The notes beneath the pieces are model-generated. The model was not told where the DNA came from, ran no database searches, and worked only from the letters and a program-made list of their open reading frames with translations. A DNA stretch of 64,000 nt from Chlamydiales bacterium (lineage in GTDB: Bacteria > Chlamydiota > Chlamydiia > Chlamydiales > SM23-39), in NCBI GenBank assembly GCA_028278035.1, contig JANQFC010000065.1:1558-65557 (forward strand), written 5' to 3'. This document shows, in pieces, positions 18,375 through 20,066 of the stretch. Position numbers and translations under genes: made by a program. Positions within the stretch are counted from its first letter, which is position 1, and each line of letters starts with the position of its first letter.

Positions 18375-18593
18375 ATGAAAACTTCAGCATTTTTAGAAAA
18401 ATTTTTAAATGATTCTCAATTTAGAAAGGATTTAAGACAAGATACTAAAAGGCCTGAAATCAGGGATGAAAAAGATGCACTGGCCAAAATACACTCAATA
18501 TTTATGGATACAGCGTATCCTAACAGCCTGAATAACTACTGTTATGTAGAGTGTGGTCCAACCCCTCCCATCACTCCCTGTTATGTAGAGTGA
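18375..18593 (+). CDS. candidate RiPP precursor peptide (72 aa) with a repeated Cys/Thr/Pro-rich core
   Basis: AGGGGA SD lies 5 nt upstream. The helical leader MKTSAFLEKFLNDSQFRKDLRQD... is Nif11-leader-like. The C-terminus is ...NNY-CYVECGPTPPITP-CYVE-stop. The gene lies 57 nt upstream of a radical SAM/SPASM gene. Confidence 0.6.
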   Translation: MKTSAFLEKFLNDSQFRKDLRQDTKRPEIRDEKDALAKIHSIFMDTAYPNSLNNYCYVECGPTPPITPCYVE

Positions 18594-18617
18594 GGTCCAA
18601 CCCCTCCCATCACTCCC
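18540..18617 (+). repeat. 2 x 39-bp tandem repeat encoding CYVECGPTPPITP; the units differ only at 18554 (T) versus 18593 (A)
   Basis: tgttatgtagagtgTggtccaacccctcccatcactccc / tgttatgtagagtgAggtccaacccctcccatcactccc. Confidence 0.95.
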
Positions 18618-18650
18618 CTTTACAAAAATCAGTAGATAAATATTGAAATA

Positions 18651-20066
18651 ATGACTAAACAAAAATATTTTTTAAGTTTACAATGGCATATTACAACCAA
18701 TTGTTCTAATCGTTGCAAACATTGTTACATGTATGATGCGACTACATATGATGATGAAAGAAAAAATACTCTTTCTTTAAAAAATTTAATTAAAATATTA
18801 GACGACTTAGAAAATTTCGAACACAAATACAATACCCAGATTGAACACCTATCAATAACTGGCGGCGACCCTTTAATGCGCAGTGATTGTTTTGAATTTT
18901 TAGAAGAGCTTAAAAAAAGAAAGAAAAAATTTTCTCTTATGGGTAATCCGGAAACATTAACCCAAGCCAACGTCAAAAGATTAAAAAACTTAGATATCTC
19001 TCATTTTCAAATGAGCTTAGACGGCCTTGAACTAACCCATGATTATTTTAGATCAAAAGGAAGCTTTCAAAGAACATTAGAAAAATTAAAACTATTAAAA
19101 AAATATGATATTAGATCAAATATCATGTTTTCTCTTTTCCCTAATAATGCAAAAGAATTATTACCTTTAATGAATTTTGTAGCAAAACAAACTGAAGCTA
19201 CATCTTTCAGTTTTGATATCGGCTGTTTTGTTGGATGTGGAACAAATTTAAATAAAAATTTTACTGCGCAAGCTGTTCATCAAATTTTATCAGATTACTT
19301 AAAAGAAAAAGAAAAGCTCACACAAGAATCCCGATGTATTTTTCATGAAAAATCAAATTTACTAAAATTAATTCGATTTGAAAATAATAAACTAACTCCA
19401 ATTATAACAAAAAATACTCCTGTTATTTCTGGATGTTTAATAGGATGGATTCCTCCATCAATATTATCAGATGGCACACTTTTAGCATGCAGAAGATTTA
19501 TTCAAAAAGTTGGAAAACTACCCGAACAGACTTTTGAAGAAATTTTCTTACAAAATACTTATTTAAAAAAATGCCGAAGAAAAAAATATTTTGAAGAATG
19601 CAAAGATTGCGAACTTTATTCAGTCTGCAGGGGTTGTCCTGCAAATGTTTATAGTCTTACAGGAAATGCTTTTTCTAAGCAACCTATGTGTTTTAGAAAA
19701 AACATTAAAAGAAATATCAAAATACCAAAATTCAACAATGAGCCTGATTTAAATACCTCTAATGAAGAAGAATGGGCATTTATATCCAAATATTATGCTT
19801 TTAAAACAAATTATCAAAGCTTTTTAAAAAACAAAGACTTTGCTTATCTATATTTAGATCTTTCAAGAGATCAGATATTAAAAAATGAATTTTTAAAAAA
19901 TCCGCTTGCCTATTGCACCAAAAATCAATATCAAATCTCTCAAGATGAATTAGCTTTTCTAAACTATAGATTTTCAGAAGCAATAATACATACATATAAT
20001 CCTAATTCCGACAAAATAGCTAAAGAAGCTACCGAAATCTTAATTAAAGATCTAATATCTACATAA
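18651..20066 (+). CDS. radical SAM enzyme with full SPASM domain (peptide-modifying maturase candidate) and a ~100-aa C-terminal extension
   Basis: CSNRCKHC (Cx3Cx2C) at residues ~18-25, and a GGDPL SAM-binding motif. SPASM elements are C-x12-G-x4-C (GCLIGW...DGTLLAC) and CKDCELYSVCRGC (Cx2Cx5Cx2C), plus a later Cys. Confidence 0.85.
   Translation: MTKQKYFLSLQWHITTNCSNRCKHCYMYDATTYDDERKNTLSLKNLIKILDDLENFEHKYNTQIEHLSITGGDPLMRSDCFEFLEELKKRKKKFSLMGNPETLTQANVKRLKNLDISHFQMSLDGLELTHDYFRSKGSFQRTLEKLKLLKKYDIRSNIMFSLFPNNAKELLPLMNFVAKQTEATSFSFDIGCFVGCGTNLNKNFTAQAVHQILSDYLKEKEKLTQESRCIFHEKSNLLKLIRFENNKLTPIITKNTPVISGCLIGWIPPSILSDGTLLACRRFIQKVGKLPEQTFEEIFLQNTYLKKCRRKKYFEECKDCELYSVCRGCPANVYSLTGNAFSKQPMCFRKNIKRNIKIPKFNNEPDLNTSNEEEWAFISKYYAFKTNYQSFLKNKDFAYLYLDLSRDQILKNEFLKNPLAYCTKNQYQISQDELAFLNYRFSEAIIHTYNPNSDKIAKEATEILIKDLIST

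Follow-up and report, generated by a model that had tools for sequence, protein, structure and literature searches.

The window, a stretch of 64,000 nucleotides of contig JANQFC010000065.1 from a Chlamydiales bacterium, contains a short open reading frame (ORF) of 72 codons and, 57 nt downstream of it, a gene for a 471-residue radical S-adenosylmethionine (SAM) protein with a SPASM domain. With a probability of about 0.7, this pair represents a working two-gene cassette of the Chlamydiota, in which the short ORF encodes the precursor of a peptide that is synthesized ribosomally and modified post-translationally (RiPP) and the second gene a radical-SAM/SPASM maturase that belongs to an unnamed clade. 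Judging from the sequences, the enzyme probably modifies the small Cys-containing peptide, and the two genes are presumably co-transcribed. The features of the two genes are listed below by their positions in the window.

18364-18369, forward strand: Shine-Dalgarno-like AGGGGA, 5 nt 5' of the precursor ATG (sequence reading)
18375-18593, forward strand: precursor ORF, 72 codons (ORF list)
18375-18536, forward strand: precursor leader, residues 1-54, with the motif FLEKFLNDSQFRKDL (BLASTP to the precursors of loci L084 and L089)
18537-18593, forward strand: precursor core Y-CYVECGPTPPITP-CYVE, followed by TGA (ORF list, sequence)
18651-20066, forward strand: putative radical-SAM/SPASM peptide maturase, 471 residues (ORF list, NCBIfam, AlphaFold2 (AF2) model)
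18690-19178, forward strand: radical-SAM core, residues 14-176, with the cluster ligands C18, C22 and C25 (Pfam PF04055, E 2.4e-20)
19434-19691, forward strand: SPASM region, residues 262-347, with seven Cys (Pfam PF13186, 23.7 bits against a gathering threshold of 21.5 bits)
19704-20063, forward strand: C-terminal helical domain, residues 352-471, related to leader domains of the NHLP clan (AF2, hidden Markov model (HMM) and profile searches)

The precursor gene and the maturase gene

The 72-codon ORF with a good Shine-Dalgarno site, which was described in an earlier note on this DNA, is present. The translated peptide ends with ...NNY-CYVECGPTPPITP-CYVE-stop. Its Cys residues are located at positions 56, 60 and 69, and its short Cys/Pro-rich core is CYVECGPTPPITPCYVE. 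When the leader is compared by BLASTP with the precursors encoded beside orthologous enzymes, it matches those of L084 and L089 with E-values of 1e-5 and 4e-5 respectively, both of which are single-comparison values. FLNDSQFRKDL of the window leader corresponds to LLTDSEFRKDL of the L089 precursor. The L084 precursor exceeds the cut-off of the Nif11 model TIGR03798 (38.6 against 32.3 bits). To judge from these similarities, the window leader is a degenerate helical leader of the Nif11/NHLP clan, which is homologous to the Nif11-type precursors of orthologous loci. The window peptide itself matches none of the Pfam or NCBIfam models, the cut-offs of TIGR03798 (32.3 bits) and TIGR03793 (50.9 bits) not being reached, and a GG cleavage site is absent from its leader. 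Thus, the proposal of a Nif11-like leader holds as homology to the L084 and L089 precursors, but not as a match to a leader model. As the earlier note had supposed, the peptide matches no named precursor family, either in these scans or in the protein search. A match of the window peptide to a leader HMM of our own (E 4.6e-10) is not counted, since the seed alignment itself included the peptide, which makes the match circular.

The enzyme contains the SAM-cluster motif C18-x3-C22-x2-C25 and the seven-Cys SPASM pattern C262-x12-G-x4-C280, C317-x2-C320-x5-C326-x2-C329 and C347, which provides the ligands for two auxiliary Fe-S clusters. Both Pfam matches are above gathering, and the position and motifs of the enzyme are as first reported. 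An alignment of 26 homologues shows no variation at C317, C320, C326, C329 and C347, and at least 90% conservation at C262 and C280. The first SPASM Cys is missing from the chlamydial orthologues P0016 and P0019, and the second is also missing from P0019, such that one auxiliary cluster may be lost in these proteins. The AF2 model of the window enzyme has a predicted local distance difference test (pLDDT) score of 92.5. The folds nearest to this model in the PDB are those of SuiB and SkfB (top), PqqE, anSME and TigE, with the core superposing over approximately 355 columns. An N-terminal RiPP recognition element (RRE) is absent from the enzyme; there is no room for it, because the radical-SAM motif begins at residue 18.

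Among the NCBIfam families, the enzyme matches ACGX (TIGR04340) best, with 230.3 bits (cut-off 400) over the whole 341-position model, and SbtM (TIGR04082) second best, with 178.8 bits (cut-off 350) over model positions 199-516 only. In scans of 11 members of the clade (the window enzyme and 10 others), the ACGX scores are 207-241 bits and the SbtM scores 150-190 bits, with every other family well behind. The true ACGX enzyme of Collinsella, used as a positive control, reaches 529.7 bits with the ACGX model and 186 bits with the SbtM model. By its own sequence scores, which are below both cut-offs, the enzyme is placed in a third, unmodelled and unnamed clade of a group that also comprises ACGX and SbtM. 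A protein search finds at least 120 clusters (90% identity) that cover 84-100% of the enzyme. The homologues come from chlamydial metagenome-assembled genomes (MAGs), Acidobacteriota, Chloroflexia, Halanaerobiales, Fuchsiella, Desulfovibrio inopinatus and other sources. Two homologues, P0018 (770 residues) and P0061 (731 residues), are fusions of the clade enzyme with an alpha/alpha-toroid domain that gives Prenyltrans and SQHop_cyclase Pfam matches, a hint that a second modification may take place.

If the enzyme were a cofactor- or haem-type radical-SAM/SPASM enzyme similar to AhbD or NirJ, or an anaerobic sulfatase maturase, the small ORF would be an incidental neighbour. The enzyme gives sub-threshold matches to AhbD (117 bits, cut-off 500), NirJ (104 bits, cut-off 515; 104-106 bits for NirJ and NirJ2), MftC (66 bits, cut-off 265) and PqqE (53 bits, cut-off 381), and neither a protease nor an exporter is encoded close by, both of which count in favour of this explanation. 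However, the cofactor scores are far under their cut-offs (265-650 bits) and well under the ACGX and SbtM scores. In addition, curated NHLP or Nif11 precursors adjoin the enzyme in five clade loci, the enzyme itself carries fused NHLP-like domains, and genes for haem d1, sirohaem or sulfatases are not found among the neighbouring genes scanned. A function outside RiPP maturation is hence highly improbable. The models of the SCIFF maturase and the sulfatase maturase are both absent from the best 25 of the 59 NCBIfam matches to the enzyme. Thus, upon comparison with the sulfatase-maturase and cofactor families, the enzyme groups with neither. The assignment of the pair to the sactipeptide, ranthipeptide or SCIFF systems, which the earlier note had favoured, does not receive support from the models either, the scores being 58.8 bits for PapB (NF047865, cut-off 340), 56 bits for StsB (cut-off 625) and 46 bits for AlbA (cut-off 850).

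Clade precursors, the 39-bp repeat and the in-frame TGA codon

Small ORFs beside orthologous enzymes were searched for, as had been suggested, at the 21 clade loci whose flanks could be used. At 17 of them, a small ORF with a candidate leader adjoins the enzyme, which is strong comparative evidence that the small ORF is a substrate. With this outcome and that of the family comparison, two of the grounds on which the earlier note would have given up the RiPP reading speak for it instead. The precursors of five loci pass curated cut-offs, those of L014, L015, L016 and L088 the cut-off of TIGR03793 (NHLP) and that of L084 the cut-off of TIGR03798 (Nif11). NHLP or Nif11 leaders and GG cleavage sites are present in precursors of the clade. 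Cys-containing cores are located at the equivalent position in 16 other clade loci, the C-G motif is present in six clade loci, and one NHLP precursor of the clade ends with ...SCACGPSIG. The following list gives precursors and cores of the NHLP loci and of loci of chlamydial type.

L014: NHLP precursor with the core VPPCDCACC
L015: NHLP precursor with the core VCSCDCDGEITEGSCV
L016, 3278-4990, reverse strand: four to five tandem NHLP precursors, with a GG site and then an xCW[DQ]D core
L088, 1-7548: proteusin-like cluster that contains the clade enzyme, an NHLP precursor with the core RLGAWSCACGPSIG and, in addition, three other radical-SAM genes (a B12-binding domain in one of them)
L003, chlamydial type: core PCGGHTCGIGCQHRCGAPC
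L002, chlamydial type: core GCWGSCTLGC
L086, chlamydial type: core NGCISCGAR
L006, chlamydial type: core NGPCGD
L089, chlamydial type: core EQRCASSPCIFW
L005, chlamydial type: core LLSSGCTPAEIGR

The cores of L016 suggest that a Cys-Trp-acid motif is the target in that branch. The precursor of L087 (2788-3000) has a leader in common with L003 and L086, does not contain Cys, and ends at a TGA stop codon. An in-frame TAA-TAA is located 11 codons after this TGA, directly before the enzyme start, in an arrangement as in L003.

The core of the window precursor lies in a 39-bp tandem repeat, which consists of the following parts.

18540-18578, forward strand: copy 1, which encodes CYVECGPTPPITP, with the Cys codon TGT at 18552-18554 (Tandem Repeats Finder, pattern search)
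18579-18617, forward strand: copy 2, in which A at 18593 creates TGA at 18591-18593 and ends the ORF (Tandem Repeats Finder, pattern search)
18594-18635, forward strand: in-frame continuation after TGA, GPTPPITPLYKNQ, followed by TAG at 18633-18635 (sequence)

Tandem Repeats Finder detects the 39-bp unit in 2.0 copies with a score of 151 and a match of 97%, and a repeat pattern search gives two matches against zero expected by chance. The sole difference between the two copies is T at 18554 versus A at 18593, by which TGT, the codon for the Cys of the C-G motif, is changed to TGA. The ORF terminates within copy 2, and the peptide contains one complete 13-residue unit plus CYVE. All three Cys residues and both CYVE motifs are located 5' of the TGA stop. 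If decoding is standard, unit 2 contributes CYVE alone, as the TGA in copy 2 ends translation there, and GPTPPITPLYKNQ would be added only upon read-through or recoding of UGA. Thus, the tandemly repeated 13-residue core that the earlier note described exists as 2.0 copies at the DNA level, but it is not translated as a tandem. An independent Logan assembly is identical across 7.4 kb. An exact DNA search for the repeat in the JGI metagenomes gives no match. The duplication reads as a very recent expansion, of the kind by which ACGX-type repeat cores grow, with a nonsense change in copy 2. An alternative genetic code is rejected, because TGA closes 8 of the 40 long ORFs (20%) in the window, the GC content of which is 31%, and the ORFs are intact under table 11. 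A small hairpin is possible in each copy (18549-18576 and 18588-18615), with the form GAGUG[U/A]GG ... CC-A-UCACUC. The T-to-A change that creates TGA also converts a U-U mismatch to an A-U pair in the hairpin of copy 2.

A nonsense codon inside a near-perfect repeat may also be a mark of precursor erosion, in which a longer core was duplicated and then acquired a nonsense mutation, while the enzyme is kept for a substrate encoded elsewhere or is itself being lost. It agrees with this explanation that the orphan peptide has so degenerate a leader that no model detects it, that the L087 peptide is Cys-less and TGA-terminated, that the sequence and position of the precursor vary between loci, and that P0016 and P0019 do not contain the first SPASM Cys. 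However, the homology of the leader to the orthologous precursors remains detectable, the Shine-Dalgarno-like site is kept, and three Cys residues and both CYVE motifs are left before the stop. None of the cluster ligands is missing from the intact enzyme, which is kept at 55-60% identity at the same location in several MAGs. Cores of RiPPs are commonly hypervariable. Erosion of the precursor is considered unlikely on this balance.

Alternatively, the UGA at 18591-18593 may be recoded as selenocysteine (Sec) or read through, which would yield an 85-residue precursor with two units, the second of them being CYVE-U-GPTPPITP, and hence a seleno-RiPP like the substrates of SbtM. SbtM is the second-best family of the enzyme, and its target residue is a UGA-encoded Sec with a Sec insertion sequence (SECIS) directly downstream, according to Lewis et al. 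(2021) as summarized in PMC11002830. In the window, the lone difference between the copies falls exactly on the Cys of the C-G motif, and the frame remains open for 13 further codons after TGA and ends 15 nt before the enzyme ATG. The L087 locus, with its Cys-less precursor, TGA stop and in-frame TAA-TAA 11 codons on, would be a second example of chlamydial type. However, RNA folding does not give a stem-loop 3' of UGA either in the window or in L087. The sole local stem (GAGUGAGG...CC-UCACUC) includes UGA itself and is present in copy 1 too. An Rfam scan does not give a SECIS match even at E up to 10, and tRNA-Sec is not encoded in the 64-kb window. None of the 10 ORFs with the rough size of SelA, SelB or SelD matches the Sec machinery, all of them being housekeeping genes, and the other ORFs of the window were not scanned. 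SelD is not found in Chlamydiae in a survey of more than 5,200 genomes (PMC5029168). Furthermore, TGA is an ordinary stop codon for one fifth of the long ORFs in the window, and an in-frame TGA at a Cys position is found in none of the 11 other clade precursors checked. Recoding of UGA as Sec is accordingly given very little credence, and the 72-residue form is preferred as the precursor of the cassette.

The C-terminal helical domain of the maturase

The last approximately 120 residues of the enzyme follow the SPASM region, are conserved across the clade, and are predicted to be all-helical with high pLDDT. When 21 such C-terminal domains are scanned, three match NF038399 (Os1348-family NHLP clan), with a best E-value of 2.8e-6, one matches TIGR04509, and one matches TIGR03798. 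A profile of the domain finds 49 proteins among 1.84 billion representative proteins, most of which are clade enzymes or fragments. This profile also finds P0276, a bona fide double-NHLP precursor (E 3.3e-5; 107 bits on TIGR03793), and P0272, a double NHLP-like protein (E 1.6e-6). Long-form enzymes of approximately 565 residues (L009, P0248 and P0094) contain an additional true NHLP domain, which is core-less and fused behind the C-terminal domain. The fused NHLP domains match TIGR03793 with E-values of 4e-11 and 8.5e-16, and that of L009 is located at 6315-6641. When the domain is aligned with the clade leaders by hhalign, the expected motifs align, with a P-value of 0.007 and a probability of 5%, which is not decisive alone. 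A sequence-profile search of the PDB with the domain gives only spurious coiled-coil-like matches. It is concluded that the C-terminal extension is homologous to the leader domains of the NHLP clan.

The earlier note had described an extension of approximately 100 residues that could serve in substrate recognition. This role is plausible for the extension, which is somewhat longer than described, because it is related to NHLP leader domains. We infer that the domain recruits or mimics the substrate leader in place of an RRE. A more specific reading, which is doubtful at present, is that the clade has swapped the usual RRE for a built-in pseudo-leader, the NHLP-homologous C-terminal domain, to which the long forms add a true NHLP domain. 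The pseudo-leader would dock to the leader of the substrate, or would sit in cis at the site for the leader, so that the enzyme stays switched on. If this is true, one conserved enzyme could serve hypervariable and even degenerate leaders, as in the chlamydial cassette. A bolder extension of the pseudo-leader reading supposes recoding of the TGA codons that stand at Cys positions in the window and in L087. A maturase carrying a domain homologous to the leader of its own substrates is not found described in the literature, and such an arrangement for substrate recognition is of interest.

The chlamydial cassette, its proposed action and known systems

The lysyl-tRNA synthetase encoded in the window is 70-74% identical to those of Parachlamydiales or Candidatus Anoxychlamydiales MAGs, and further named matches are all from Chlamydiota. 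Therefore, the genome is chlamydial. The cassette is flanked upstream by genes for a polar amino-acid ATP-binding cassette (ABC) importer, a glyoxalase, a beta-carbonic anhydrase and a DUF3185 protein, and downstream by a convergent PIN/PhoH gene and genes for a 217-residue SWIM-like protein, an SH3_3 protein and RmuC. The order of the enzyme gene, phoH and the gene for the approximately 217-residue protein is also found in L002, L003, L004, L086 and L089, the enzymes of which are 52-60% identical. In the window and in L002, L003, L086 and L089, the enzyme gene that neighbours phoH also has a candidate precursor beside it, which speaks for a cassette that is stable in a chlamydial lineage. At L004, the contig ends just 5' of the enzyme gene, and only the enzyme-phoH pair is visible. 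A peptidase-containing exporter, a protease or an immunity gene is not found within approximately 7 kb of the cassette, and the locus is minimal for this reason, in agreement with the earlier description. The same note had regarded such a system as new to Chlamydiae. The genome is indeed chlamydial, but the system is not unique to it, because the clade is present in several chlamydial MAGs and many anaerobes.

Elsewhere in the window, a transfer-messenger RNA gene (3460-3832, forward strand; tag peptide GEDNTLALAA; Rfam 140.7 bits) is ordinary. A shikimate-pathway block (39086-44373, reverse strand), which encodes a fused dehydroquinase/shikimate dehydrogenase, DHQ synthase, chorismate synthase and EPSP synthase, is housekeeping. 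A 177-residue ORF (15956-16489, reverse strand) has Cys/His clusters (CLCHH..., GNCC) and matches no Pfam family.

Several observations weigh against a working RiPP cassette and against the relationships on which it is based. The precursor is an orphan, being its own sole match among 5.8 billion proteins, and the peptide alone does not match a leader model. The nonsense codon within the repeat could signal a decaying precursor, and a scan for promoters and terminators does not rise above the shuffled background. The C-terminal domain of the window enzyme itself matches the NHLP-clan model NF038399 weakly (E 0.088). Foldseek does not give a significant match for this domain; it places three Os1348 chains (6lk7) in the top 18 of 350,000, with non-significant E-values of 4.6-10. 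The proposed chemistry is modelled on relatives that score only approximately 180-230 bits. Finally, Cys may not be the universal target of the clade, because two clade loci do not have a usable Cys substrate, L087 with a precursor that contains no Cys and L009 with only the fused core-less NHLP domain.

If the pair is a working cassette, the action of the enzyme may be as follows. The C-terminal domain would recruit the precursor leader, or would substitute for it. The cluster bound by C18, C22 and C25 would then cleave SAM, and the resultant 5'-deoxyadenosyl radical would take a hydrogen at or next to a core Cys, while the two SPASM clusters would bind the thiolate and accept an electron. 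By analogy with characterized relatives, the target residue may be converted in either of two ways. One is the formation of an S-C thioether ring with a mass change of -2 Da, for which CYVE would provide a Cys-X2-Glu motif comparable to the Cys-X3-Asp of ranthipeptides. The other is the formation of an SbtM-like thio-oxazole with a mass change of -4 Da per Cys.

Chlamydiota are usually regarded as poor in secondary metabolism, and a RiPP cassette is conserved next to phoH in several of their MAGs. The absence of an exporter near the cassette suggests that the peptide acts inside the cell, for instance in metal or redox chemistry. Because peptide maturation by radical-SAM/SPASM enzymes is well known, this kind of cassette is familiar; what sets this one apart is the unnamed clade, the unusual recognition domain and the unusual host. 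The clade lies between ACGX and SbtM, and one solved member would inform the ACGX systems that are common in gut Collinsella.

The cassette may be compared with four groups of known systems. In the RiPPs with NHLP or Nif11 leaders (proteusins and prochlorosins; TIGR03793 and TIGR03798), the precursors have leaders of the type that is carried by the clade precursors, and the window leader shares homology with a precursor of Nif11 type. However, the window leader is too degenerate for either model and has no GG site, an epimerase, a methyltransferase, LanM or a C39 transporter is not encoded at the window locus, and the modifying enzyme is a SPASM protein with an NHLP-like domain of its own.

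The SCIFF and ranthipeptide systems (CteB and PapB) and the sactipeptide systems (AlbA, SkfB and StsB) resemble the window in that a Cys-rich peptide and a radical-SAM/SPASM enzyme of the same fold form a minimal cassette. PapB cross-links Cys-Xn-Asp/Glu motifs, which CYVE of the window resembles. In contrast to these systems, the window enzyme does not have an N-terminal RRE and scores far below the PapB, StsB and AlbA cut-offs, and the window peptide does not match the SCIFF model.

ACGX is the best-scoring family of the enzyme and has a similarly small cassette. Its precursors consist of tandem x-C-G-x (x-A-C-G-x) units with Pro-rich spacers, such as PACGSADPKAAP-ACGTACGSVDPAAAP... of Collinsella, to which ECGPTPPITP of the window is similar. 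However, the window enzyme scores 230 bits, below the cut-off of 400, against 530 bits for a true member. ACGX enzymes have approximately 345 residues and no C-terminal helical domain, the matches ending near residue 350. The leader of the window precursor is Nif11-like, and just a single C-G unit of this precursor is translated. Neither the 72-residue peptide nor its 85-residue read-through form matches the ACGX peptide model TIGR04341 (cut-off 28 bits), on which a control precursor from Sulfurospirillum scores 51.4 bits. To our knowledge, the ACGX system has been defined only bioinformatically, and a literature search did not find a biochemical study of ACGX or of any member of the window enzyme's clade.

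SbtM differs from the window enzyme in its N-terminal region of approximately 200 residues, which is missing from the window enzyme, and the score of 179 bits is below the cut-off of 350. The window enzyme has the C-terminal NHLP-like domain instead, and neither a SECIS match nor Sec machinery accompanies it among the ORFs scanned. Nevertheless, SbtM is the closest biochemically characterized relative, a radical-SAM/SPASM enzyme that acts on Cys or Sec of a small peptide, and it is in keeping with this likeness that the window precursor contains an in-frame TGA at a Cys position.

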